Positions 3,652 through 46,724 are shown, counted from the stretch's first letter. The stretch is DNA of 64,000 nucleotides from Mycobacteriales bacterium (GCA_036558285.1 DATBFW010000135.1:21364-85363), one strand, 5' to 3'. The notes: generated from the letters alone by a model not told the origin. Numbers and translations are program-made.

Positions 3652-4041
<390 letters not shown>

Positions 4042-28733: not shown

Positions 28734-29438
28734 CCGTGCGAGGCAGATGATCTCCGGGCTGTCCTCGGTGAGCGGGCCGCGGTCCCAGTCGCCGTAGTAG
28801 GTCTCGACCTGCAGCCCGGCCTCGGCCAGGAACCGGTCCAGCTCGATGCGGGGCAGGAACCGCAGCGTGCCGAGGTCGACGTGGTCGTGCCAGCGGGCGC
28901 CGTCGGTGATCTCGGCGAACGTCACGAACTCGCCCTCCACCTTGCGCACCTCGTACCGGACCGTCACGGCGTCGCCCTGGTACGGCAGCTCGAACGAGCT
29001 GCCGTCCCACGACTCCCAGGCCTTCGCGCCCGGGTTGCGGGTCTCGAACGCGACCCGGCCGGCTGGCCGGATCGCGTCCCGCATCCCCTGCAGCGTGGCC
29101 AGGACCTCCTCGTCGGTGCGCAGTTCCTGGAAGGCATGGCCGGTCATCGTGACCAGGTCGAACTCCCGGTCGTACGCGCCGGGCCGGAGCACCCCGGATA
29201 CCCACTCGATCGACGGCTCCTCGCGGGCGACGGCCAGCATGCCGGCGCCAGGGTCGAGCCCGACGAGCCGGCCGCGATGGCCGTCCCGCCGGGCCCGCTT
29301 GAGCAGCGTGCCGGTGCCGCAGCCGACGTCGAGCACGTCCCCGGCCGCGCGGACCAGCGACAGGTAGAACTCGTCGCCCGGCCCCCACGGGTTCTGCGCG
29401 TCGTACAGGCGGCCGTCCTCGACGTCGGCGTAACTCAC
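28722..29438 (-). CDS. class I SAM-dependent methyltransferase
   Basis: Motif [13 protein letters not shown], then post-[15 protein letters not shown] 29438 overlaps the stop of the upstream VOC gene (GTGA). Confidence 0.85.
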
Positions 29439-30679
29439 GCGTCGCCCAGGTAGAAGCGGACGCCCTGGTCGTCCGTGCACTCGCTGGTGGTCCCGTACGG
29501 CTGGCGCGCCGGGTCGGTGGCCGTCCCGCCCGCGGCGCGCACCCGCTCGACCGCGGCCGCCACGTCGGGCACCTTCCACATCGGCACCGCGGTGTCGGCC
29601 GCGTGGCCGCCGTGCATCCCGGTCATCGGGCTCACCCCCGGCACGTTCCATCCGTCGTCGACGGTGCCACCGGTGAAGGTCCACCCGAGCACCTGGCCGT
29701 AGAACCTACGGAACCGGGCGGAGTCGGCCACCTCCAGGGTCAGGTAGGACAGGTCGCCCTGGCCCCGGCCGTTCTCCGGCGAGCGCGGGGCCGTCCCGGC
29801 CGGGTGCAGCGCGAACGCGACGCCGTGGTCGTCCGCGCAGTCGGCGGCCGTCCCGTACGGACGCTCCTGCGGGTCGGTCGCGGTACCGCCGGCCGCGCGC
29901 ACCCGCTCGACCGCCGCGGCCACGTCCTCGACCGCGTATGACAGGTGGAAGCCGGGCTCGCCGGCACCGAGGCCCATCGGCAGCGCCTGGCCCTCGACGG
30001 TGCGACCGCCGGGCGCGTATCCCGGGCTGAACCGCCAGCCGAGCACCGCGCCGTAGAACGCGGCCGCCCGGTCCGGGTCGGGCACGGTCAGCCAGGCGTA
30101 GCCGACGTCCCCCGGCCGTTGGGTCTCCGGCAGCTCCGACAGCGGGGTGTGCAGCAGCCAGCGGTGCCCGAACGGGTCCACGATCGTGACGTTGCGGCTG
30201 CCGTAGTCGTCGTACATCGGCCGCGGCATCCGGCCGCCGCGGCCGATGGCCAGCCGCATGGTCTCGGCCACGTCCGGGACCTGCAGCGACAGGCTGACCG
30301 GGGTTCCGGCCGGGGACGGCGCGATCACGCCGATCTCCGGGAACTCCTCGGCCAGGTAGAGCGTCCCGCCGGACAACGCCAGCTCGGCATGCCCGACGCG
30401 CCCGTCATCCATCGTGATCGGCTCGCCGACCAGGTGGGCGCCCAGCACCTCCACGTACCAGTCCAGGGCGCGGCGGCCGGATCCGATGGCCACGGCCAGG
30501 TACGGGACGGCGGCGCCACGGGCGATGGTCGGCGGCTGTTCGGTGATCGTGCTCGTCACGGCGACTCCTCGGGGCAGGGCCAGTGCGCGCTCGATGCGGG
30601 CACGCAGGCTGGCAGCGAAGTCCGGGTCCGGGTCGGTCGGGACGACCGGCTCGCGCAGCGCGTCGAACGGGTCGGTCAT
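29435..30679 (-). CDS. three-domain VOC (glyoxalase-fold) protein
   Basis: 414 aa with three VOC-like modules. Modules 2 and 3 are an internal duplication (DVAAAVERVRAAGGTATDP occurs twice). The ~55-aa non-VOC N-terminus is MTDPFDALREPVVPTDPDPDFAASLRARIERAL. The ATG abuts the sigma-factor stop (TAGATG). Confidence 0.8.
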   Translation of the reverse strand: MTDPFDALREPVVPTDPDPDFAASLRARIERALALPRGVAVTSTITEQPPTIARGAAVPYLAVAIGSGRRALDWYVEVLGAHLVGEPITMDDGRVGHAELALSGGTLYLAEEFPEIGVIAPSPAGTPVSLSLQVPDVAETMRLAIGRGGRMPRPMYDDYGSRNVTIVDPFGHRWLLHTPLSELPETQRPGDVGYAWLTVPDPDRAAAFYGAVLGWRFSPGYAPGGRTVEGQALPMGLGAGEPGFHLSYAVEDVAAAVERVRAAGGTATDPQERPYGTAADCADDHGVAFALHPAGTAPRSPENGRGQGDLSYLTLEVADSARFRRFYGQVLGWTFTGGTVDDGWNVPGVSPMTGMHGGHAADTAVPMWKVPDVAAAVERVRAAGGTATDPARQPYGTTSECTDDQGVRFYLGDA

Positions 30680-31183
30680 CTACTCCACCTCCGTCCCCGG
30701 CGTGTCGTACGCGCGGCGGAACGCCGCGCGGGCCCGGACCAGCAACGCCTCGGTGGCGTGCAGGGTCCGGTCCAGCAGCCGCGCCACCTCGGGGACGGGC
30801 AGGCCGTCCAGGTAGCGCAGCGTGAGCGCGAGCCGGTGGTGCGGGCCGAGCCGCTCCAGCGCCGCCCGGGCGGTGACCGCGTCGAGCACACCGTCCTCCC
30901 AGGGCGGCTCCGGCTCGGCCGGCACGAGCGCGAGGCTGCGCTCCTCCCGGGCCAGCCGCCGCCAGTGGTCGACCAGCTTGTGCCGGGCGACACCGATCAG
31001 CCACGCGATGCTGACCGGCTGGTCCCGGCGGACCGTGTCCACCGCGGCCAGGAACGTCTCCGCGGTCAGGTCCTCGGCCAGCGCCTTCTGCCCGCACCGG
31101 GACAGCAGGTAGCCATAGACCTGCGGCAGCGCCTCGTCGTACAGCGCCAGCAGGTCGGCCCCCGCCGCCGGCTGCTCGCTCAC
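30680..31183 (-). CDS. ECF-type RNA polymerase sigma-70 factor
   Basis: 167 aa from GTG 31183. Sigma-2 (LAEDLTAETFLAAV...WLIGVARHKLVDHWRR) and sigma-4 (LRYLDGLPVPEVARLLDRTLHATEALLVRARAAFRRAY) are present; there is no C-terminal extension. Confidence 0.85.
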   Translation of the reverse strand: MSEQPAAGADLLALYDEALPQVYGYLLSRCGQKALAEDLTAETFLAAVDTVRRDQPVSIAWLIGVARHKLVDHWRRLAREERSLALVPAEPEPPWEDGVLDAVTARAALERLGPHHRLALTLRYLDGLPVPEVARLLDRTLHATEALLVRARAAFRRAYDTPGTEVE

Positions 31184-31325
31184 CGTGTCCGCTCCTCGGA
31201 CAGATCGGCAGGCGCAGGCGCCAGCCGATCGGCCCTCGTCGCTCTCCGCTCGCGCTGCGAGCCCTCGCGCTCGCTCACACACATCCTTCGCCCGGGAGCC
31301 CACTTCTCCGACGGGTCGGCGCGAA

Positions 31326-36909: not shown

Positions 36910-39900
36910 CTAGGCGGTGAGGCGGGCGGGGACGCCGCGGGGATCCGTGGCCGGTGGGTTGATCGCGGCCGCCTTGTCGGCCAGCGCCCGGTTCGCCGCC
37001 GCCTCCCCGTCGCGCTCCCGGATCGCCTGCACCAGGTCGTCCCAGAGCACGCCGGAGGCCGGCTCGACCCGCAGCCCGGCCCGCGCGGCGGCGATCGCCC
37101 CGTCCAGCCGGCCCGCGGCCAGGTATCCGGCCGCTGCCCGGTGCGCCACGTCCGCCACGAACGTCGGCATCTCGTGCGCCACCCGGTCGCGCGCGACCCA
37201 GGTGTAGCGCCGCGGCAGGTGCGGCTCGAGCAGCGGCCCGCGGGCCAGCTCCAGCGCCCGCAGCACGTCCGACTCGTCACCGCGCTCGGCGAGCGCGACG
37301 AACAGGTGCCAGTCGAGCTGCACGTCCCCGGACAGCTGCAACCGCCCGTCCTCGTCCAGCCGCAGGCGGGCGGTGCCGTCGCCGTCGGCGCCGAGCCAGT
37401 CGCCCACCCGGGCCAGCGTCGCGTCCCGCTCGGCCACCGTCACCCCGTACGGCCAGACCGACGCGGCCAGCGCCCGCGGCGTCACCCCGCCGGACAGCGC
37501 GAGGAAGCCGGCGATCTCCAGCGCCAGCGGCGTGCCCGGCAGCAGCCGATCGGTCCCGTCGACGGCCGGCTCGCCGAAGATCCGCAGCAGCACCGCCGGC
37601 TCGCGGTCCGGGTCGACCGGCCGCGGCAGGTCCGGCACGACCAGCCCGTCCGCCGGCTCGTGCGCGGCCGCCGAGACCGGCGCCCACACCGGCGGGGGCG
37701 CCGCGGCCGGCTCCGGCTCGGCGGCGGCGGCCTCGGCCCGGATCAGCCTGGCGAGCGCCGCGTAGCTGCGGGCGGTCAGCAGCTGCGCGCCGACCGTCAC
37801 GCCGAGCACGCCGGTGTCGAGCATCCCGCGGTCGTCGATCTCGAACCGCCACCGTGCGGTCGGCACCTCGCCGGCGATGAGGATGCCCAGCGGCGCGCGC
37901 CGGGTCGAGCGGGCCCAGTCCTGCAGTTCGGACAGTTGCTCCGGTGCCGGCGGGCTGGCCAGCACCAGGAAGTCGGGGGTCACGCCGTCGCCGCGCAGGC
38001 CGCGGACCCGGCCGGTGAGCACCGAGTCGATCCCGGACGCGGACAGCTCCTGCCGGCCGGCCGACAGCCGGTCGGTGACGCCCTCGACCACCTCGTCGAG
38101 CGAGTCGACGCAGCGCAGCCGGTCCTCGCTGATCGGCGCCAGCGCGGAGCCGAAACCGACCAGCGTGACCCGCATGTCGTCGGACCACCGGTTGGTGACC
38201 AGCTCGACCGCGGCCGCGGCGACCACGCTGCGGGCCCGGTCGAGGTCGCCGGCCACGCAGATCGCGCCGCCCGAGCTCTCCAGGTCGACGAAGATCCGCC
38301 CGTGTCCGTCGCCGCCGACCGACACCAGCCCGGGCAGCGGCGCGGCGACGCCGTCCACCGCCGGCAGCGGGGTGGAGCGGTCGAGCACCCAGCGGGATCC
38401 GCCGTTCTCGGCCACGAACGGCGGCGGCGCCTGGTCCTGCGGGACGGCGAGCAGCAGCTCGAGTGCGTCGGTGGACAGCCGGGCCGCGTACACCTCGGGG
38501 GCCGGGCGGTCGTGCTCGGCCAGCGTGCGGGCGAGCGTGCGCAGGGCGCGGTCGAGGTAGTCGGCGCCGGCCTGGTCCGCGCCCAGCCGGACCGCGACCT
38601 CGGCCGCGGCCGCTTCGGCGTCCGGCAGCGGGGCCGTGCTCCCGGCGCGGCGCTGGGCAGCCCGCCGGCGGCGCAGCGCGACGAGCACCTCGAGCACGCC
38701 GGCGGCGAGCAGTTCCGCGCCGACCAGGTCCCACGGCAGTTCGGGCGACCGCTCCGGCCCGCGCGCCTGGCCGCCGATCGCGTGCCCGTCGGCCCCGGCC
38801 CGGCTCAGCGGCCCGCCGACCGCCGCCGGCGCCGGCAACGCCCCACTCCCCACCCCGTACGCCGAACCAGCGCCGCCCGAGTCTGTCGCCGACCCGGTCC
38901 CGCGCACCGCGCCCGAGCCGTAGCCGGCAGCCGGACTGCCGAGCGCCCCCGAGCCGGGACCGTACTGGCCGCCCGAGCCGGAGCCCGCGGCCGTGCCGGA
39001 GGTGTGCCCGGCGGCCGAGCCGGCGCCGGTGGCCGAGCCGGAGCCGGTGGAGCCAGCGGCCGAGCCGGAGCCGGTGGGCGAGCCGGAGCCGGCGGCCGAG
39101 TCGGAGCCGGCGGCCGAGCTGGAGCCGGTGGAGCCGGCGGCCGAGTTGGAGCCGGTGGTATGGCCGGTGCCGCTGATCGTGCTGGAGCCCGCGTGGCTGA
39201 GCGGGACGGAGCCGGCGGTCGAGCCCGATCCGCCCGCCGAGTGGGAGCCGGACAGCGAACCGGAGCCCGACAGGGAGCCGGAACCGGCGAGGGAGCCGGG
39301 GCCGGAAGGGGAGCCGGGGCCGGAAAGGGAGCCGGGGCCGGAAAGGGAGCCGGGGGCGGAAAGGGAGCCGGGGCCGGCGTGGGCGGTGGTCGACTGGGTG
39401 GTGCCGCTGTTGGCGACCGACCCGTGCGCGGCCGGCAGGTCGGGCGTGACCTCGATGAGGCCCTCACCGCGCGCGTCGGCCGGCATGATCAGCGTCCAGC
39501 CCGGCCGGATCAGGCTCTCCAGCGTCAGCTTCGACCCGTCCGGCTGCGGCCGACCCTTGTTGAGCTCGAACACCTCCCGGTAGCGGATCCCGGATCCCAG
39601 GTAGCGCTCGGAGATGTCCCAGAGACTGTCGTGGTGGCGGCCGTGCGGCGGCATCACCACGTACTGCTTCGTGCCGTGCGGGGTGGCCGCCGCCTGCCCC
39701 CGGGCCGGCGCGGTCCGGGCCTGGTCCGCCTGCCGGGCGGCCGCGTCCGCTTGCCCGACCGTGGTGACCGCGACCTGGTCCATCGCACCGGAGACCGAGG
39801 CGACCGCAGCAGGCGCCGCGGCCGGAGGGCCGGACGACGTGTGCGCGGTCTGCAGCCCGTGGCCGGCGGTGGCCAACAGCAGCACCGCGGTCACCAGCCG

Positions 39901-40248
39901 GCGAGCCAGGTCCTGCTGCGCGGCGGCCGCGAACGGCACCCGCCACGGCAGACCACTGCCCCTTACCCCAGCCACCAGCTCGACGATCAGGCAGGACACG
40001 AGCTGCGCCCAGGCCAGCCAGACGATGCAGACGATCACGTCGAGCACGAACTCGATCGGCACCTGCCCGCCCAGCGGATCGCGCGGGATCTCCGGGATGG
40101 GGTTGCCGACGACGACGACCAGCGCGGCCGGGATGCCGACCACGATGCCGAGCAGCAGCAGCGCGGAGAGCACTCCGCGCAGCACGTCGCCCGCTCGCCT
40201 CACCCGGCGCGCGCCCTCCAGTGGCGCCCTCGACATCGTCCTGCCCAC
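36910..40248 (-). CDS. 1112-aa multi-domain membrane protein: 3 N-terminal TM, LysM-like domain, Ser/Gly-rich spacer, 4th TM, large cytoplasmic region, SARP-like wHTH + BTAD C-terminus
   Basis: Hydrophobic segments at about aa 24-48, 66-95, 117-131 and 506-525 (the last followed by RRRRAAQRR). LysM-like segment YVVMPPHGRHHDSLWDISERYLGSGIRYREVFELNKG...IRPGWTLIMP (aa ~194-256). aa ~291-470 is almost only S/G/A/T. aa ~885-975, VLLRIFGEPAVDG...LALEIAGFLALSGGVTPRALAASVWP...ATLARVGDWLG, resembles an OmpR/SARP winged helix. aa ~976-1090, LDWHLFVALAERGD...LELARGPLL...AIAAARAGLRVEPASGVLWDDLVQAIRERDGEAAANRAL, resembles BTAD. Last gene of the Tad operon. Start at GTG 40248 or ATG 40236. Confidence 0.8.
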   Translation of the reverse strand: MGRTMSRAPLEGARRVRRAGDVLRGVLSALLLLGIVVGIPAALVVVVGNPIPEIPRDPLGGQVPIEFVLDVIVCIVWLAWAQLVSCLIVELVAGVRGSGLPWRVPFAAAAQQDLARRLVTAVLLLATAGHGLQTAHTSSGPPAAAPAAVASVSGAMDQVAVTTVGQADAAARQADQARTAPARGQAAATPHGTKQYVVMPPHGRHHDSLWDISERYLGSGIRYREVFELNKGRPQPDGSKLTLESLIRPGWTLIMPADARGEGLIEVTPDLPAAHGSVANSGTTQSTTAHAGPGSLSAPGSLSGPGSLSGPGSPSGPGSLAGSGSLSGSGSLSGSHSAGGSGSTAGSVPLSHAGSSTISGTGHTTGSNSAAGSTGSSSAAGSDSAAGSGSPTGSGSAAGSTGSGSATGAGSAAGHTSGTAAGSGSGGQYGPGSGALGSPAAGYGSGAVRGTGSATDSGGAGSAYGVGSGALPAPAAVGGPLSRAGADGHAIGGQARGPERSPELPWDLVGAELLAAGVLEVLVALRRRRAAQRRAGSTAPLPDAEAAAAEVAVRLGADQAGADYLDRALRTLARTLAEHDRPAPEVYAARLSTDALELLLAVPQDQAPPPFVAENGGSRWVLDRSTPLPAVDGVAAPLPGLVSVGGDGHGRIFVDLESSGGAICVAGDLDRARSVVAAAAVELVTNRWSDDMRVTLVGFGSALAPISEDRLRCVDSLDEVVEGVTDRLSAGRQELSASGIDSVLTGRVRGLRGDGVTPDFLVLASPPAPEQLSELQDWARSTRRAPLGILIAGEVPTARWRFEIDDRGMLDTGVLGVTVGAQLLTARSYAALARLIRAEAAAAEPEPAAAPPPVWAPVSAAAHEPADGLVVPDLPRPVDPDREPAVLLRIFGEPAVDGTDRLLPGTPLALEIAGFLALSGGVTPRALAASVWPYGVTVAERDATLARVGDWLGADGDGTARLRLDEDGRLQLSGDVQLDWHLFVALAERGDESDVLRALELARGPLLEPHLPRRYTWVARDRVAHEMPTFVADVAHRAAAGYLAAGRLDGAIAAARAGLRVEPASGVLWDDLVQAIRERDGEAAANRALADKAAAINPPATDPRGVPARLTA
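38839..39378 (-). repeat. in-frame degenerate tandem repeats encoding the Ser/Gly-rich spacer
   Basis: Plus-strand runs such as GGGAGCCGGGGCCGGAAA(G) repeated about 4 times (39.30-39.37 kb) and GCCGAGCCGGAGCCGGTGG-type 18-21 bp units (39.01-39.16 kb). They translate on the minus strand to GPGSLS / GSGSAAGST repeats. Confidence 0.8.
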
Positions 40249-40261
40249 CTGTGCCTGCCCC

Positions 40262-40711
40262 TCACAACCCGGTGACCGCGACCGCGTCGGCCCGCTCGGT
40301 GATCGTCAACGTCTTGAACTTCGGCATGATACCGAGCAAAGTCGTACGAAACGTCATAGTCACCGTAACTCGGACACCGTTGTCCTGCCCGGGGTGGTCC
40401 GGATCCGCCAGCGGCACCCAGTCGAAGTCGGTCACCCCGGGGCTGGTGCGGTACGGCGCGACCGCCGCCGGCACCAGGCCCTTGTCCACGAAGCAGATCC
40501 CCTGCGAACGCAGCAACGCCACGTCGCACTGCCCGGCACCGGCTCGCGCCGCCTGCTCGGCGATGTCCGACGCCCGCTGCTTGGCCTCCAGCGCCGCCCC
40601 GCCGTCGATGACCAGCCCGGCCATGAAGATCATCGCGGGGGCGAAGATCGCCACGAACAGCGCGGCCGACCCGCGCTCGGCCCGCCCCCGCAGCCGGCCC
40701 GGCCGGCCCAT
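40262..40711 (-). CDS. TadG-related / Tad pilus-assembly (pseudopilin-like) protein
   Basis: 149 aa, AERGSAALFVAIFAPAMIFMAGLVIDGGAALEAKQRASDIAEQAARAGA matches the TadG-like N-terminal pattern. Its start overlaps the upstream stop by 1 nt. Confidence 0.7.
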   Translation of the reverse strand: MGRPGRLRGRAERGSAALFVAIFAPAMIFMAGLVIDGGAALEAKQRASDIAEQAARAGAGQCDVALLRSQGICFVDKGLVPAAVAPYRTSPGVTDFDWVPLADPDHPGQDNGVRVTVTMTFRTTLLGIMPKFKTLTITERADAVAVTGL

Positions 40712-41109
40712 CAGTCCGTCCCCCGGTAGATGTCGACCGCGGACACCGACGTCCGCGTGATCGTCTGCTTGCCCCACAGCGTGGTCACCCGGCAGCTCGC
40801 CGTCGCGGTGACCGATCCGCCCGGCACCGGCACGCGCGGCGTGATCACCAGGTTGGTGCAGTCGTGCCCCTTGATCGCCGCGTCGTACGCCGCCCGCGCC
40901 GCCGACTCGGCGTTGCCGTTGTGGTTGATCGTCGCGGCCCTGGCCGCGTCCCGGGCGGCGCCCTCGGCCAGCGCCCGTCCCTCGGTCACCCGGCCGACCG
41001 AGATGATGAACGAGATCACCAGCAGCAACGCCGGCGCCAGCACCGCCAGCTCCAGCGAGAACGAGCCGCGGTCGCGACGCCTGCCGGTCGCGCCGAGCTG
41101 CCGGGTCAT
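40711..41109 (-). CDS. TadE-family pseudopilin
   Basis: 132 aa, RRDRGSFSLELAVLAPALLLVISFIISVGRV (TadE N-terminal motif with a G|SxxLE prepilin-type site). Confidence 0.7.
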   Translation of the reverse strand: MTRQLGATGRRRDRGSFSLELAVLAPALLLVISFIISVGRVTEGRALAEGAARDAARAATINHNGNAESAARAAYDAAIKGHDCTNLVITPRVPVPGGSVTATASCRVTTLWGKQTITRTSVSAVDIYRGTD

Positions 41110-41111
41110 GC

Positions 41112-41585
41112 TCAGTCCTCCCCCGAGCGCTTGAACACCTCGAACGGCCCACCGGCGGTCGCGGTGATCGTCAGCTTGCTCTTCCCGAAGATCCCCGGGA
41201 TCAGCATGATCGGATTGGCCGACACCGTGACCTGCACCTGGTTGAGGCCGGCGATCCGGCCGTCGACCACCGGCCGGCTGGTGGTGTCCCCGCTGTTGTC
41301 CAGCCGCTCCCACTGGTCGAGCGCAGCGGTGCGTGCCAGCGTCTGGACCTGCTGGGCGGACGGGACGGTGTCCTCCAGCTGCGCGTTCGTCGGGTATGCC
41401 CGGACGGCGCGGGCGGTGCCCTCGGCCTCGGCCTTGACCACGTTGCGGGCGTGGTAGTAGAGCGCGGCCTGCACGGTCATGAACACCAGCAGCAGGAACG
41501 CCAGCGACAGCACCGCGAACTCGAGGCTGCCCGAGCCGCGGTCACCCTCGGCGGGGTGCCGCCGCGAGGGCAGCCATCGGGTCAC
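41112..41585 (-). CDS. TadE-family pseudopilin
   Basis: 157 aa, GDRGSGSLEFAVLSLAFLLLVFMTVQAALYYHAR. GTGA overlap with the flp-like stop. Confidence 0.7.
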   Translation of the reverse strand: MTRWLPSRRHPAEGDRGSGSLEFAVLSLAFLLLVFMTVQAALYYHARNVVKAEAEGTARAVRAYPTNAQLEDTVPSAQQVQTLARTAALDQWERLDNSGDTTSRPVVDGRIAGLNQVQVTVSANPIMLIPGIFGKSKLTITATAGGPFEVFKRSGED

Positions 41586-41809
41586 GGCGCAGTGGGGATC
41601 TGCTCGTTCTTCACCGTGTCGCCGGCGCCGTTGACCTTGTCGATCACGATCTTGCCGATGAGCACGGCCGCGGCGATCAGCACCGCCGAGATGATCGCCG
41701 TCTCCAGCGCCGACGCCCCCCGCTCGTTGCGCTCCCGCAGCGGCTCCAGCCGGGTGCGCACGAAGGCCATCGTGAACGCGACCATCGGATGGTCGAAGAG
41801 ATTGAACAC
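41582..41809 (-). CDS. flp: Flp/Fap-type prepilin candidate
   Basis: 75 aa: leader ...RERNERG, then ASALETAIISAVLIAAAVLIGKIV (G|xxxxE with Glu at +5 and a hydrophobic helix), then a short polar tail. The only gene in the operon preceded by a real gap (76 nt). An internal Met could give a shorter leader. Confidence 0.6.
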   Translation of the reverse strand: MFNLFDHPMVAFTMAFVRTRLEPLRERNERGASALETAIISAVLIAAAVLIGKIVIDKVNGAGDTVKNEQIPTAP

Positions 41810-41885
41810 TGCTGCTCCCTCGTGATCATGGGCGAAGATCGCGGGCGGACCGACGAATGGTACCTGCGTGCGGTACCGCCCGAAC

Positions 41886-42809
41886 CTACAGAATCCGGAT
41901 TACTGCCGGGTAGGCCAGAAAAAGGAGATATCCGAGGACGATCAGCATCTGAGCCACCAGCATCGACTGAGATCGCTCACCGGCCCGGCCCTCCATCTCG
42001 GCCAGCTCGCGCCGCCGCAGCGTTGCCGCCCGCGCGGCCAGCGAGTCACGGATCTTGGCGCCGTCGTCGGCGACCAGTGCGAGCGCCGCGGCGAGGTCAC
42101 GCAGCTCGTTGATGCCGACCTCGTCCCCGAGCCGGCCGAGCGCCGCCCAGGGTGTGAGCCCCTGCAGCCGGGCGAACGCGAGCGTGTCGCGCAGCCGGGC
42201 GAACGGCCAGCCACCGCCGATCGAGGCCGCCGCGGTCAGCGCCTCAGGCACGCCGCGACCGCCGGCCAGGTTCATCGAGACCAGGTCCAGGAACGCGCCG
42301 ACCGCGTGCCGGAAGTCCTGCCGCCGGGCTGCCGCCTCCCGGCGCACCGACGCCAGTGGCAGCAGCGCCGCGAGCAGGGCGAACAGGATCGTGGCCCCGA
42401 CGGACACGGTGAAGCCGAGCTGGATCCCGGCGACGGTGGCCGCCGCGGCGAGCACCGGCCCGAACAGCAACCCGCCGACCGCGAACAGCACCGTGCTGGC
42501 CAGGAAGCCCTCCAGCGACCGGCCGAGCACGGCCAGGTCCGAGCGCAGCGAGGTGACCCGGAACCCGCGGGTCTCGAACGCCGTCGCCAGCCGGGAGCCG
42601 AGCCGCAGCTGCCAGCTCGACATGCCCTCGTTGGACAGCAGCGCCTCGGACACCGAGAACCGGGACGGCTGCCGGTCGGCGTCCAGCCGGGCTATTCCGG
42701 CGGCGATGCCGGTGCGCGCCGGCCGCAGCGCGACCACGAACATCAGCAGGCCGAGGCCGACGACCGCGCCCGCGACCAGCGCGTAGACCAGGTCCATGGA
42801 CAGGATCAC
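41886..42809 (-). CDS. tadC: type II secretion system F-family inner-membrane platform protein (TadC-like)
   Basis: 307 aa with N- and C-terminal TM clusters around a cytoplasmic T2SSF-like domain (FLDLVSMNLAGGRGVPEALTAAA...). GTGA overlap with tadB. Confidence 0.8.
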   Translation of the reverse strand: MILSMDLVYALVAGAVVGLGLLMFVVALRPARTGIAAGIARLDADRQPSRFSVSEALLSNEGMSSWQLRLGSRLATAFETRGFRVTSLRSDLAVLGRSLEGFLASTVLFAVGGLLFGPVLAAAATVAGIQLGFTVSVGATILFALLAALLPLASVRREAAARRQDFRHAVGAFLDLVSMNLAGGRGVPEALTAAASIGGGWPFARLRDTLAFARLQGLTPWAALGRLGDEVGINELRDLAAALALVADDGAKIRDSLAARAATLRRRELAEMEGRAGERSQSMLVAQMLIVLGYLLFLAYPAVIRIL

Positions 42810-43699
42810 GACGGCGCCCCCGTCCGGGTGGCGAGCCGCTCGGGCCGGCTGTCGAGGAACCGCCTGGCCGTGTCGTACCGGCTCAGGCGCCGCAGCCAGA
42901 GGAACCCGGCGGCGAAGATCGCGCAGACCACGGCGAGCGTGATCTGGCCGCCGACGGAGTCGTACGGCTCGACGTAGTCGGGGTTGAGGAACCGCAGCCC
43001 GAAGACCACGACCAGGGTCAGCACGGTGATGATCTGCACGCTGCGCCTGGTCGAGGCGCGGCTGGCCTCGATCCGGTTGCGCATGTCCATCTCCTCGCGG
43101 GCCGCCTGGGACAGCGCGGTGAGCACGTCGCGCAGGCCGGGCCCGCGCAGCCGGGCGTTGAGGATCAGCGCGGCGAGGATCAGGTCGGCACCCGGGTCGT
43201 TGAGCTCGTCGCCGAACTTGAGCAGCGCGTCCGGCAGCGGCTCGCGGGTGTGCAGCCGGTCGATGAGCAGCGCCAGCGGCGGCTTGAGGATCGGCGCGGC
43301 GGCGTTGTAGGACGCCGGGATCGCCTGCTCCAGCCCGACCGCGCCGGCGATCGTGTCCCGCAGCGACTCGGTCCAGGAGGCGAGCGCCTCCAGCCGCAGC
43401 ACCTCGGCCCGGCCGTGCGCGGCACCGCCGAACAGCTTCGTTGCGAAGAACCCGAGCAGCCCGACGCCGATCGCGACGACCAGCCAGCCGGAGGCGAGCA
43501 GCGCGACCAGCGCCAGCCCGCCGCCGAGCAGCAGCCGGCGGCCGAGGTCCGCGGGCGCGAGCCGGTCGGTGAGCGTCGGCCCGGCCGGCTCCCGCGGCGC
43601 CCAGCCGATCAGCGACGCGATGAGCAGCAGCAGCCCGCCGCCGGCGAGCGCGCCGCCGAGCAGTGCGAGCAGCAGATCGGAGGAGATCACCCGGACCAC
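42806..43699 (-). CDS. tadB: type II secretion system F-family inner-membrane platform protein (TadB-like)
   Basis: 297 aa, same architecture (WTESLRDTIAGAVGLEQAI...LILAALILNARLRGPGLRDVLTALS...). Overlaps the tadA 3' end by 13 nt. Confidence 0.8.
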   Translation of the reverse strand: MVRVISSDLLLALLGGALAGGGLLLLIASLIGWAPREPAGPTLTDRLAPADLGRRLLLGGGLALVALLASGWLVVAIGVGLLGFFATKLFGGAAHGRAEVLRLEALASWTESLRDTIAGAVGLEQAIPASYNAAAPILKPPLALLIDRLHTREPLPDALLKFGDELNDPGADLILAALILNARLRGPGLRDVLTALSQAAREEMDMRNRIEASRASTRRSVQIITVLTLVVVFGLRFLNPDYVEPYDSVGGQITLAVVCAIFAAGFLWLRRLSRYDTARRFLDSRPERLATRTGAPS

Positions 43700-44997
43700 C
43701 GCCCGAAGTCGTCCGGCCGGTAGCCGGCCGCCTCCAGGTCCTCGATCGCCTGGATCGGCGCTGCCGGCCGCGCCCGGCCGTCCGGACCCGGCGCCCAGAT
43801 CTCGCTCGACGTGACCCGGCCGTCGACGCCGTTGACCTCGCGCACGCTGGACACGAACCGGCGCAGCTGGCCGCCGGACCGGTAGTCGTTGCGCCGCTCG
43901 ACGAAGATCACGTAGTTGATCGCGCCGGCGATGAGCATGTGCGAGGCCTCGATCGGCAGGTGCTCGGCCGCCTGCAACGCGTACGTCGCGATGCGGTTGA
44001 ACACCTCCGACGAGCTGTTGGCGTGGATCGTGGACAGCGAGCCGTCATTGCCCTGGCTCATCGCGTTGAGCATGGTCACGATCTCGTCGCCGAGGACCTC
44101 ACCGACGATGACGCGGCTCGGGTTCATCCGCAGCGAGCGGCGGACGAGCTCGGCCATCGAGATCCGGCCCTGGCCCTCGGAGTTGGGCAGCCGCTCCTCG
44201 AACGCGACCACGTTGGGGTGCAGATCGGGGAACTCGTCCAGGCCGAGCTCCAGCGCCCGCTCCACGGTGATCAGCCGCTCGTGCGCCGGGATCTCGTTGG
44301 CCAGCGCCCGCAGCATCGTGGTCTTCCCGGCGTTGGTGGAGCCGGCGATCATGATGTTCTTGCGGGCCACCACCGCCGCTCGCATGAACGCGGCCAGCCC
44401 CTGGTCGAGCGTCCCGTTGCCGACCAGGTCGGACAGGAAGACCTTGGGCAGCCGGGCCCGCCGGATCGAGACCACCGGGCGCTTGGTGACCTCCATGACC
44501 GCCGAGAGCCGGGAACCGTCCGGTAGCCGCAGGTCCAGCTGTGGGTTGGCGGTGTCGAACGGCCGGCTGGACAGCCCCGAGTAGGCCGCGAGGGTCTGGA
44601 CGAGCTCGACCAGCTCCTCGTCGGTCTCCGCGACCGGGTCGAGCATGAGCTCGCGCCCGTCCGCGTAGCCGACGAAGACCCGGTCGCAGCCGTTGATGTC
44701 GACGTTCTCCACCATCGGGTCGTCGAGCAGTGGCTGCAGCCGGCCGACGCCGTAGAGCGCGGCGTGCACCGCGGCGGCGAGGTCTTCCTCCTCCTCCGCA
44801 GTCGGCGGCACCCGGCCGGACTCCAGCTCCAGCCGGGCGTGCGAGGCGAGCGCCCGAGCGATGAGCGACCGCGCGTACTGCCGCTCGTCCTCGGGGCTCA
44901 TCGCCAGCCCGAGAACCGCGTCGTCGCGGCGCTGGCCGGCGATCTGCTCGGCGACCTCGGTGCGCAGCCGGCGCACCAGCGCGTGGTCCATGGCCAT
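43687..44997 (-). CDS. tadA: CpaF/TadA-family secretion ATPase
   Basis: 436 aa. Walker A IAGSTNAGKTTMLRAL, Walker B/Asp box RVIVGEVLGDE, His box SLSTIHANS. N-terminal domain typical of the VirB11/CpaF class. Confidence 0.9.
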   Translation of the reverse strand: MAMDHALVRRLRTEVAEQIAGQRRDDAVLGLAMSPEDERQYARSLIARALASHARLELESGRVPPTAEEEEDLAAAVHAALYGVGRLQPLLDDPMVENVDINGCDRVFVGYADGRELMLDPVAETDEELVELVQTLAAYSGLSSRPFDTANPQLDLRLPDGSRLSAVMEVTKRPVVSIRRARLPKVFLSDLVGNGTLDQGLAAFMRAAVVARKNIMIAGSTNAGKTTMLRALANEIPAHERLITVERALELGLDEFPDLHPNVVAFEERLPNSEGQGRISMAELVRRSLRMNPSRVIVGEVLGDEIVTMLNAMSQGNDGSLSTIHANSSSEVFNRIATYALQAAEHLPIEASHMLIAGAINYVIFVERRNDYRSGGQLRRFVSSVREVNGVDGRVTSSEIWAPGPDGRARPAAPIQAIEDLEAAGYRPDDFGRWSG

Positions 44998-45770
44998 TAC
45001 CGCGTCACCGGAGCCCCGAGCCGGCTGGCCAGCTGGCCGGCGATCTCCCGGACGGACCGGACCAGCAGCGAGCGGTCGAGCCGGCCGACCCACTCGCCGG
45101 CCAGCAGCCCGGCGCCCTTCGGGTCGAGCGCGACCCGGCCCAGCACCGGGACCGGCAGGCCGGCCTGCCGCAGCACCTGGTCGATCTGCTTGGGCGAGGA
45201 GTCGTCCCGCGGGCTGGTCACCACGACCGTGTAGACCTGCGGCGGCCGGCCGGGGCGGCGGTCGAGCTCGCGCAGCACCGCGCCGGCCCTGGCCCGCAGG
45301 TGGGCGACCGCGTCGATGGACGGACGGGTCACCAACACCACGGCTGCCGTGTGGGCGAGCACGTCGGCGGCCGGGCTGCCGGTGTAGAGCCGGCCGCAGT
45401 CGGCGATGACGTCCACCCCGGGGGCCAGCTCGAGCAGCTCGCCGACCGGCCCCCACAGGCCGGACAGGCCGCTGCCCTGCTCGCCGGCCGACAGTCCGAC
45501 GACCACCTCGAGGCCGCCGTCGAGCCGCTGCACGTGCTCGAAGATCTGCTCCGGGCGCATCCCGCGCCGCGCGCCGACCGCAAGGCTGATCAGCCCGAGC
45601 TCCGGCGAGAGCGGCGCCCCCCGGGGGCCGCGCAGCCGCAGCGCGACGTCGCCGCCGGACGGGTCGAGCTCGGCGAGCAGGGCGCGCCGCGGCCACACCG
45701 CGGCCATGGTGATCGCGGTGGTGGTGACCCCGGGCGAGCCCTTGTCGGCCGCCAGCGCGATCAGGGCCAT
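44997..45770 (-). CDS. ParA/MinD-fold TadZ/CpaE-like (Ssd-like) protein with degenerate P-loop
   Basis: 257 aa. The N-terminus ALIALAADKGSPGVTTTAITMAA aligns with the deviant Walker A (KGGxGK[ST]) position but lacks both lysines. Coupled to the genes on either side (TGATG, TAATG). Confidence 0.6.
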   Translation of the reverse strand: MALIALAADKGSPGVTTTAITMAAVWPRRALLAELDPSGGDVALRLRGPRGAPLSPELGLISLAVGARRGMRPEQIFEHVQRLDGGLEVVVGLSAGEQGSGLSGLWGPVGELLELAPGVDVIADCGRLYTGSPAADVLAHTAAVVLVTRPSIDAVAHLRARAGAVLRELDRRPGRPPQVYTVVVTSPRDDSSPKQIDQVLRQAGLPVPVLGRVALDPKGAGLLAGEWVGRLDRSLLVRSVREIAGQLASRLGAPVTR

Positions 45771-46555
45771 CAGCCGTCGCCCTTGTCGTAGTCGTGGCCG
45801 GGGTCGAGGCGGGCGAGGGTGATCGCACCCTGGGCGTTGGCCGCGGTCACCGCGGACAGGCCGTCGGTCGGGGCGGCGCTGAGATCGCGGTTGCGCACCT
45901 CGATGCCGACGACGACCGCGTTCTGCCCGGAGGCGCTGGGGTCGACGTTGGTCACGAACGCCGAGCTGATCAACGTCGCGGCGTGCGGCACCTGCTTGGG
46001 GTCGGCGGTGCCGGAGTTGGCCGACCCCGAGTTCTGCCCGCTGTTGCCGCGCGGTGTGTAGAGCACCTTGACCACGTCGCCCGCGACGAGGGTGTGCGGG
46101 TATTGCCCGTCGGGGACGTTGAGCGAGATCTGCACGAGACCCTTGGCCGGGGTGACCGCGTCACCGAAGGTGCCCTCGGACAGCAGCGAGCCCTGCTTGA
46201 GCGCGATCAGCGCCTTCTTGCCCTGCACCCGGGTGAAGAAGTCGGTGACCGGCACCGGGGCGAACAGCGACGAGTTGGTGGCGGCCAGCGCCTGCTGCCG
46301 GAAGTCGTCCCGGGTCAGCGTCTGGCCGAGCGCGACGTCGTGGGCGACCACCAGGTATTCCTGCTTCTTGCCGCTGGTCAGCACCAGCGACGCGGCCAGC
46401 GCCGCGCCGCCGAGGATCAGCACCAGCGCGAGCAACGCCAGCAGCGGCCGGCGCTGCCGGGTCGGGACCGGGAGGCGGTCGCCGGTGACGGCGGCGCCGG
46501 CCGCGCGCCGGGCGGCGCGGGTGGGCAGCTCTCCATTGGTCGTCTGGGTGGTCAT
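45770..46555 (-). CDS. CpaB/RcpC-like SAF-domain pilus assembly protein
   Basis: 261 aa with an N-terminal TM (LLALLALVLILGGAALAASLVL) followed by a SAF-like YLVVAHDVALGQTLTRDDF... First gene of the operon. Confidence 0.65.
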   Translation of the reverse strand: MTTQTTNGELPTRAARRAAGAAVTGDRLPVPTRQRRPLLALLALVLILGGAALAASLVLTSGKKQEYLVVAHDVALGQTLTRDDFRQQALAATNSSLFAPVPVTDFFTRVQGKKALIALKQGSLLSEGTFGDAVTPAKGLVQISLNVPDGQYPHTLVAGDVVKVLYTPRGNSGQNSGSANSGTADPKQVPHAATLISSAFVTNVDPSASGQNAVVVGIEVRNRDLSAAPTDGLSAVTAANAQGAITLARLDPGHDYDKGDG

Positions 46556-46724
46556 GAGTGGTCGCTCCGGTCGGGGGCCGGTCGTGGTCGGGGGGCAGTC
46601 TAAGCACTTTCGGGCGATCCATCCCCATCGAGTGACCCGCTGTGGACGGGCGGTCCGCTTGTGGACAGCAAAACGCGCGAATGCGACGGAGTGGCCTAAG
46701 GTGCTCTGCCGGAGGTGAGCACCC

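Follow-up and report, generated by a model that had tools for sequence, protein, structure and literature searches.

The last gene of the Flp/Tad pilus operons of actinobacteria raises the question of what its product, a large multidomain protein, does among pilus genes. In the window analyzed here (the whole stretch of 64,000 nucleotides, DATBFW010000135.1:21364-85363, from the Mycobacteriales bacterium assembly GCA_036558285.1), this gene occupies positions 36910..40248 on the minus strand and, according to the open reading frame (ORF) list and translation, encodes a protein of 1112 aa (hereafter, the target). A first-pass annotation, made from the sequence alone, had reported an ORF at these positions, with no strand stated, and had described its product as a membrane-anchored SARP; the ORF itself was confirmed. 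It starts with GTG, is preceded by the ribosome binding site (RBS) GAGGGG, begins 13 nt past the stop codon of the preceding Tad-like gene, and has codon-position GC contents of 0.77/0.61/0.95, which are typical for real genes of this ~74% GC window. The analysis revealed that the target is the conserved last gene of actinobacterial Flp/Tad operons, usually located beside a divergent gene for an EssC-like ATPase. Structure models and sequence comparisons predict its architecture with high confidence: a polytopic membrane protein whose N- and C-termini are both cytoplasmic, consisting of three transmembrane (TM) helices, a LysM module and a tether outside the membrane, a fourth TM helix with a stalk, a dead P-loop domain, and a SARP module. 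The component domains are all known; what is new is their combination, the C-terminal position of a membrane-tethered SARP module, and the family size and synteny. Tentatively, we favor the reading that the target is a membrane-tethered SARP-type one-component regulator integrated in the Tad/EssC-like apparatus.

Domain models were obtained with AlphaFold2 (AF2) on an alignment of 35 sequences and then compared to the PDB with Foldseek. In the AF2 model, aa 270–495 are disordered, and the cytoplasmic residues 540–1100 mostly have a predicted local distance difference test score (pLDDT) of >90. The SARP assignment of the last domain is well supported by structure and profile comparisons. The predicted OmpR/SARP-type winged helix (aa 885–985; 37294..37596, minus strand; hhalign, Foldseek, and residue mapping) comprises strands at 886–898, helices at 907–919, 924–931, and 938–952, and a beta-hairpin wing at 962–978, with the recognition helix mapped to aa 937–953 (37390-37440, minus strand). 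It is followed by a TPR-like BTAD (aa 986–1096; 36961..37293, minus strand; Pfam in homologues, hhalign, and Foldseek). The full model matched the SARPs AfsR (8k60, 8hvr; ~245 columns) and EmbR (2fez, 2ff4) with a probability of 1.00. Modelled alone, the C-terminal 223 aa (pLDDT, 93.9; predicted TM-score (pTM), 0.88) had strong matches to AfsR and EmbR only (E-values, 8e-6 to 5e-5; query TM-score (TMq), 0.56–0.64), aligned over ~230 columns with an identity of 18–22%, and the next matches were TPR-only and about 1000-fold weaker. For the profile-profile comparison, AfsR (25-266) and EmbR (13-257) sequences were taken from the PDB alignments. hhalign aligned the family C-terminus with AfsR plus EmbR over 205 columns (probability, 92.9%; E-value, 3.6e-7), spanning template columns 3–228 of 247, in register over the winged helix-turn-helix (wHTH) and the BTAD. 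The order of an OmpR-type wHTH followed by a BTAD, which the first-pass annotation had recognized as a SARP pattern, is thus borne out by hhalign, Foldseek, and the BTAD matches of homologues.

Direct domain searches gave a divided result. Pfam BTAD (PF03704) matched 8 of the 35 full-length family members and 25 of 50 diverse ones (best E-value, 1.1e-10), while the C-terminus of the target itself matched TPR_14 alone (E-value, 0.008). Among the proposed domains, Pfam recovered LysM and BTAD in a part of the homologues; for the target, Pfam and NCBIfam gave no significant match (whole protein, 0 at E ≤ 1; no BTAD, Trans_reg_C, or FtsK). When HMMER family profiles were compared to PDB sequences, designed TPR proteins and one weak LysM match were found and AfsR and EmbR were missed, so that profile-profile and structure comparison was needed. 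Because the target has no direct hidden Markov model (HMM) match, the domain assignments rest on homologues, profile-profile comparison, and structure prediction, and a plain HMM check of the target alone, whole or in three pieces, would wrongly refute the first-pass finding.

SARPs are known as soluble activators whose SARP domain is N-terminal and which mostly serve antibiotic gene clusters. AfsR, EmbR, and SARPs of the ActII-ORF4/DnrI type share with the target a homologous OmpR-type winged helix followed by a BTAD in the same order and register. In contrast to these proteins, the module of the target is C-terminal and is tethered via the predicted pseudo-ATPase to an anchor of four TM helices, and its gene is located in a pilus/secretion operon, not in a biosynthetic gene cluster. 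No membrane-bound architecture is present among the SARPs in the 2024 review of these regulators (PMC10972967).

All four hydrophobic segments noticed in the first-pass annotation were recovered. Kyte–Doolittle windows of >1.5 mark three of them (aa ~18–54, 58–96, and 506–526), and AF2 places membrane helices at aa 19–47, 65–95, 106–131, and 506–532; the third (aa ~106–131) is weaker by hydropathy, but a confident helix in AF2. TM1 (aa 19–47; 40108..40194, minus strand) is preceded on the cytoplasmic side by the motif RRVRR (aa 14–18), in an N-terminus with a charge of +4. TM2 (aa 65–95; 39964..40056, minus strand) is supported by hydropathy, alignment, and AF2, and TM3 (aa 106–131; 39856..39933, minus strand) is preceded by a cytoplasmic loop with a charge of +3. 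TM4 continues into a cytoplasmic stalk helix (aa 506–532; 38653..38733, minus strand) and is followed by RRRRAAQRR (aa 526–534). The net charges (target/family median) of the N-terminus, loop 1, loop 2, and the segment after TM4 are +4/+4, −1/0, +3/+3, and +4/+4, respectively. This charge bias across the family implies that both the N- and the C-terminus are inside, and that the LysM loop and the spacer are outside. Thus, the positive-inside rule, applied across the family, supports the topology proposed from the target sequence. The cytoplasmic part, estimated earlier at ~590 aa, measures 587 aa. The TM bundle carries nearly invariant W77, W80, C86, and E90, all in TM2, and Q112; the conserved buried acidic residue suggests contacts with TM helices of TadB/C or the EssC-like protein, or a signalling role.

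The predicted extracytoplasmic LysM-type module (aa 193–267; 39448..39672, minus strand) has a beta-alpha-alpha-beta structure in the AF2 model (E193–198, H209–217, H220–230, and E251–256) with a pLDDT of 86–96. In the target, the Pfam LysM (PF01476) score of 14.2 bits is below the cutoff of 20.9, and the NCBIfam and PDB LysM matches are weak; in the family, Pfam LysM is significant in 8/35 and 12/50 members (best E-value, 9e-11). The AF2 fold and the matches of homologues agree with the LysM-like module of the first-pass annotation, and the module is predicted to bind peptidoglycan or chitin outside the membrane, its outside location being predicted via the positive-inside rule. The disordered Gly/Ser/Ala spacer that follows (aa 268–500; 38749..39447, minus strand; pLDDT < 50; G64, S54, and A39) is about 233 aa in length instead of the ~180 aa estimated earlier. 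It is the longest in the 35-member alignment, where the median is 88 aa, and, according to Tandem Repeats Finder (TRF), is encoded by nested tandem DNA repeats at 38910-39377 with periods of 18, 27, 45, and 81 nt and ≤90% matches. The length of the spacer and the DNA repeats suggest a recent repeat expansion.

The stalk is followed by a predicted P-loop domain of the FtsK/TcpA/EccC/EssC type (aa ~540–845; 37714..38631, minus strand). Foldseek matched it to TcpA (6o1w; E-value, 4.5e-6), FtsK (2ius; 1.3e-5), and EccC (4nh0/4n1a; 1e-4), and further to EccCb1-D2 (9jv8), the EccC5 DUF (8rin), and EssC, with a probability of 1.00 throughout; viral FtsK-like proteins were also among its matches. The best local BLASTP match to the EssC-like neighbor, a protein of 1477 aa, falls on the P-loop region of its ATPase domain 3 (38% identity over 58 aa; E-value, 0.002). 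Local hhalign of the family's pseudo-ATPase region against an alignment of neighboring EssC-like proteins gave a short weak match on the domain 3 P-loop (E-value, 0.0099; probability, 4%), which was counted only as supporting evidence beside BLASTP. The segment pointed out in the first-pass annotation, RIFVDLESSGGAICVAGDLDRARS...DFLVLASPP, is present at aa 651–767 and covers two degenerate motifs, as was determined by column counts over the 35 members. The Walker A position (aa 661–674, GAICVAGDLDRARS; 38227..38268, minus strand) reads G667-D-L-D-R-A-R673-S in the target and G-[DP]-x3-[AV]-R-[SA] in the family; G667 is found in 35/35 members, and position 673 is occupied by R (31/35) or Q (4/35), but in no member by K. 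The Walker B position (aa 759–767, DFLVLASPP; 37948..37974, minus strand) is a hydrophobic strand ending with A/G-x-P-P that lacks an acidic residue, with P766 in 32/35 and P767 in 34/35 members.

PF01580 (FtsK_SpoIIIE) matched none of the 50 diverse members in Pfam. Nevertheless, the pseudo-FtsK assignment, which its author had considered the weakest part of the first-pass annotation, stands on the Foldseek and BLASTP results, and both Walker motifs are degenerate in 35/35 members. Structure prediction and motif comparison confirm a domain with an FtsK/EssC-type fold that would be unable to hydrolyze ATP canonically, that is, a predicted pseudo-ATPase and not a catalytic FtsK/SpoIIIE member. 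With FtsK, SpoIIIE, TcpA, EccC, and EssC, and especially with the degenerate EccC DUF and EssC D3, it shares the P-loop fold with an N-terminal beta subdomain, the TM-stalk-ATPase arrangement, and the local similarity to domain 3 of the neighbor. Unlike these ATPases, the target has a single such domain, with Arg/Gln in place of the Lys and Ala/Val in place of a Gly of Walker A, and its Walker B has no acidic residue.

The cytoplasmic 623 aa retrieved 243 word-indexed homologues, from Actinobacteria, some of which carry the source names 'LysM domain', 'DNA-binding SARP family transcriptional activator', or 'bacterial transcriptional activator domain-containing protein'. The family was counted with a profile of the 35 full-length members, in clusters of 50% identity representatives, and comprises 11880, 7335, and 3461 representative clusters at E ≤ 1e-3, 1e-10, and 1e-30, respectively. 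At least 589 species genomes encode a relative, including those of Actinomadura, Actinoallomurus, Streptosporangium, Thermomonospora, Nocardiopsis, and Jiangella, and metagenome-assembled genomes of Pseudonocardiales and Mycobacteriales; relatives are also present in Frankia and Streptomyces. The family is spread over Streptosporangiales, Frankia, Streptomyces, Jiangella, Pseudonocardiales, and Mycobacteriales. Its members are annotated generically ('LysM...', 'BTAD domain-containing putative transcriptional regulator'), and no paper on this family was found in the literature on LysM/BTAD proteins, Tad pili, and membrane SARPs.

For synteny, 61 related loci were evaluated, each of which has ≥7 kb of DNA upstream. 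In 60 of them, the homologue is preceded by tadA, tadB, and tadC in its own orientation. An upstream, divergent EssC-like gene is found in 44/61 loci, and a downstream one in 4/61, while 14/61 have none within 10 kb; a WXG100 gene is located beside the ATPase gene in one homologous locus. According to the literature, the type VII secretion system (T7SS) variants g and h of Firmicutes always adjoin Tad genes, for an unknown reason (PMC11217815).

Three orthologues of 768–776 aa (P0058, P0059, and P0060), which are 48–53% identical to the target in full-length alignment, have lost the LysM module; all four TM helices (the three N-terminal ones and TM4) are kept, as are the pseudo-ATPase and the SARP module. 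The loci of P0058 and P0059 were examined and share the chromosomal neighborhood of the window (PhoH ... fumarase-type lyase), but the homologue is accompanied there by a ParA-like gene only, without the essC-like gene and tadA..G. In these reduced loci (L083, 2081-5390; L084, identical to L008, 4251-7596), the homologue lacks both LysM and the spacer. The core protein is thus maintained without pilus genes and appears to be paired with a ParA-like protein. Both L083 and L084 carry a GGCATCCTCTACCGTGAC element upstream of the ParA-like gene.

SARP/OmpR-type domains bind direct repeats, and AfsR contacts DNA through S46, Q48, W74, P79, S80, Q81, R87, T88, S91, R92, R94, and K95 (PMC10936776). 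These contacts were mapped onto the family through the hhalign alignment, and conservation was counted over the 35 members. AfsR W74 corresponds to W932 (kept in 34/35), R92 to R947 (30/35), and R87 lies adjacent to R941 (34/35). AfsR R94 corresponds to position 949, which is R in 11/35 members and G in the target, and around which the consensus of the 50 diverse representatives is RxRxWLG. In contrast to the SARPs, the recognition helix of the target is not basic, and Q48 (L908), P79 (a gap), T88 (A943), and K95 (position 950, D/E) are not kept. The exposed residues of the recognition helix belong to the most strongly conserved ones of the domain. This implies that their ligand is conserved as well, although the helix is not a typical basic reader of DNA. 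Taken together, the sequence evidence for DNA binding by the winged helix is mixed.

The divergent promoter of 169 bp between the cpaB-like gene, the first of the tad operon, and the EssC-like gene (46556..46724) was analyzed by sequence inspection and a four-genome footprint. It contains a TGTGGAC direct repeat at 46641-46647 and 46660-46666 with a 19-bp period (TGTGGAC-N12-TGTGGAC). In the four-genome alignment, both heptamers are invariant; also invariant are a TAGACT −10-like hexamer towards tad, a TANNNT −10-like hexamer towards the essC-like gene (TAAGGT in the window), and both RBSs, while the sequence between these elements drifts. The repeats lie at about −46/−65 from the predicted essC-like start and about −54/−73 from the tad start. 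The pair is found at the same place in the related loci L002, L003, and L005, and is kept in the reduced locus L008. It is missing from the LysM-less locus L083, so the pair in L008 may be a non-functional remnant. Neither the TGTGGAC pair nor a common direct repeat is conserved in the divergent promoters of clades that are more distant; scattered two-copy repeats with 18–19-bp spacing in L057 and L070 may be due to chance. The TGTGGAC pair is only a candidate binding site for the SARP module. GGTCG-containing direct repeats (GGTCGGGGGCCGGTC / GGTCGGGGGGCAGTC, 17-bp spacing) were also observed at 46560-46600, where they immediately precede the RBS within the 5' leader of the cpaB-like gene. 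The region upstream of flp (41810-41885, minus strand) has no TGTGGAC motif; it carries GGTACC-N7-GGTACC and a TAGGTT −10-like hexamer, which suggest that the pilin gene has an internal promoter or operator of its own.

The target is the last gene of a minus-strand Flp/Tad operon identified by Pfam, NCBIfam, and a Soj/ParA match, whose upstream genes (40262..46555) are arranged in the following order: cpaB-like (45770-46555), ParA/TadZ-like (44997-45770), tadA (43687-44991), tadB (42806-43699), tadC (41886-42809), flp (41582-41809), two TadE-like genes (41112-41585 and 40711-~41110), and Tad/TadG-like (40262-~40720). At its 3' end, the target gene showed neither an intrinsic terminator nor a sigma-70 consensus promoter. 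A mechanically called ORF of 296 aa (40262-41152, minus strand) is over-extended: the Pfam Tad domain is confined to its final ~150 aa, and the second TadE-like gene occupies another frame. Three pseudopilin genes are therefore located between flp and the target, as in L002. The ParA/Soj-like protein at the TadZ position (257 aa) has zero Pfam or NCBIfam matches and a degenerate P-loop, KGSPGVTTT versus KGGVGKTTT, in which the Lys is lost.

The divergent EssC/EccC-like neighbor (46725..51158, plus strand) contains an FHA domain and three FtsK/SpoIIIE domains (Pfam; NCBIfam TIGR03928, 2e-166, below its cutoff), and the Walker A of its ATPase domain 3, GGPARSGRST, also has a K-to-R replacement. 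Its N-terminal FHA (Yop-YscD_cpl) and triple ATPase represent a Firmicute-style EssC layout, here in an actinobacterium. Within the window, no WXG100 gene adjoins the EssC-like gene; the homologous locus L001 has one at 3657-3953. The flanking genes at 51126-53130 and 29435-31303 have housekeeping or regulatory functions. They encode an ArsR-type HTH protein, PhoH/PIN, DhaK/DhaL, an extracytoplasmic function (ECF) sigma factor together with a protein containing a glyoxalase domain, a glutamine synthetase-like protein, and, convergent with the target, a fumarase/aspartase-type lyase. These flanks are common to L002, which indicates a stable chromosomal location and not a mobile island.

If the target is a membrane-tethered regulator, the LysM loop would anchor it to peptidoglycan or report on peptidoglycan, and the pseudo-ATPase would contact a P-loop partner, which could be the hexameric EssC-like ATPase or the ParA/TadZ-like protein. 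The SARP module would bind direct repeats in the divergent essC-like/tad promoter, the TGTGGAC-N12-TGTGGAC element being the candidate, and, once bound, would recruit RNA polymerase, as AfsR does; expression of the apparatus may thereby be coupled to its assembly or to the state of the cell wall. The LysM-less orthologues remain intact where the essC-like gene and tadA..G are lost, which argues that the target is not merely a structural part of the pilus. The ToxR-like label given to the target in the first-pass annotation can be kept as an analogy and not as family membership. By prediction, the target shares with ToxR, CadC, and TcpP an OmpR-type winged helix at the cytoplasmic face and an extracytoplasmic domain on one polypeptide. 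However, the wHTH of those proteins is N-terminal, directly before a single TM helix, whereas that of the target is C-terminal and ~350 residues from TM4, with BTAD and the P-loop domain in between, and its outside domain is a LysM; the comparison stops at the wHTH class.

Several observations weigh against a regulatory role. The net charge of the recognition helix is −1 (family median, 0), compared to +4 in AfsR and +3 in EmbR, and that of the whole wHTH is −6 (family median, −3), compared to +1 and +3, respectively; L, a gap, A, and D/E stand in place of the conserved SARP contacts Q48, P79, T88, and K95, respectively; and Pfam Trans_reg_C matched only 1 of the 50 diverse members. The TGTGGAC pair is limited to the closest clade, while the recognition-helix residues are conserved far more widely, and, unlike AfsR boxes, which are 11-bp-spaced and overlap the −35 element, the pair has a 19-bp period and is placed elsewhere. 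The last place in a co-transcribed structural operon fits a structural subunit equally well, and DNA binding and activation by the target are predicted functions.

A different role has to be considered nearly as likely as that of a regulator, although it is itself somewhat doubtful: the target may be a peptidoglycan-anchored scaffold or landmark of the Tad machine, like FimV/HubP/TspA or PodJ of Caulobacter, with a winged helix that is now protein-binding and non-transcriptional. The LysM would be fixed in the wall, and the pseudo-ATPase and the TPR-like BTAD would position the ParA/TadZ-like protein, TadA, and the EssC-like ATPase. FimV, HubP, TspA, and PodJ are tied genetically and functionally to pilus machines and to ParA/MinD/CpaE-type proteins, with which HubP and PodJ form functional pairs. 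A terminal gene of a structural operon in 60/61 loci would suit such a role, as would the acidic/non-basic recognition helix that has lost several canonical SARP DNA contacts, and the conserved TM bundle, whose buried polar E90 and Q112 suit contacts within a membrane complex. The ParA/Soj-like protein of 257 aa is the only operon partner kept beside the LysM-less orthologues, which suggests a functional pair. On the outside, the target and the FimV/HubP/TspA/PodJ proteins have a peptidoglycan-binding domain in common, and on the inside TPR-like repeats, in addition to a TM segment and linkers of low complexity; however, those proteins are proteobacterial and have neither a wHTH nor a P-loop domain, and no homology to FimV, HubP, or PodJ was found beyond LysM. 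Moreover, the SARP fold is kept complete and strongly conserved, with its wing and with R941 and R947 of the recognition helix, and persistence of the target where the pilus genes are lost would be odd for a pure pilus scaffold.

The order of four TM helices, a low-complexity linker, an FtsK-like domain, and a C-terminal winged helix parallels FtsK/SpoIIIE/TraB, in which the FtsK gamma domain and the TraB wHTH handle DNA. By this analogy, the target could be an accessory subunit of a 'split FtsK', whose pseudo-ATPase joins or stacks on the ring of the neighbor while the winged helix handles DNA, in Tad-pilus-dependent DNA uptake or transfer. The best sequence similarity, to ATPase domain 3 of the neighbor with its likewise K-to-R Walker A, is in line with this proposal, and in Micrococcus luteus the competence-essential tad-1 cluster lies beside a divergent FtsK/SpoIIIE-family gene, a point mutation in which reduces transformation at least 1000-fold (PMC8467076, PMC4322843). 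Nevertheless, we consider this role unlikely: the M. luteus cluster has no reported homologue of the target; the EssC/EccC-like character of the neighbor (TIGR03928, three ATPase domains, and FHA) and the WXG100 gene of a homologous locus point to secretion of proteins and not to transport of DNA; the winged helix is of the SARP/OmpR type with a BTAD, not of the gamma-domain type; and 14/61 loci have no EssC-like gene within 10 kb, just as the LysM-less loci have none. That the target is a decaying or functionless fusion, its domains being relics with no specific role, might be read from the dead ATPase motifs, the hypervariable, repeat-encoded spacer, and the loss of LysM in some lineages, but it is very improbable in view of the thousands of intact members with many invariant residues in each folded domain, the third-position GC content of 0.95, and the conserved synteny.

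A more specific form of the regulator reading, in which the target acts as an assembly checkpoint, is improbable as it stands. Here, upon assembly of the Tad/T7-like apparatus through peptidoglycan, which LysM reads, the EssC-like ring or the TadZ-like protein would capture the pseudo-ATPase, and the capture would switch the SARP module between a DNA-bound and a sequestered state. If true, this would be the first membrane-tethered SARP, and Tad pili would for the first time be linked mechanistically to T7SS-type ATPases, a co-location that has so far been unexplained (PMC11217815). Due to its separable domains and the candidate operator, the target is directly testable. With a predicted SARP module placed C-terminally in a membrane protein that is anchored in the wall and encoded in a pilus operon, the family widens the uses of this fold. 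It also offers a concrete candidate to account for the genetic link of Tad pili with EssC/FtsK-type ATPases, so far unexplained, which is seen in the T7SSg/h loci of Firmicutes and in the competence locus of M. luteus.

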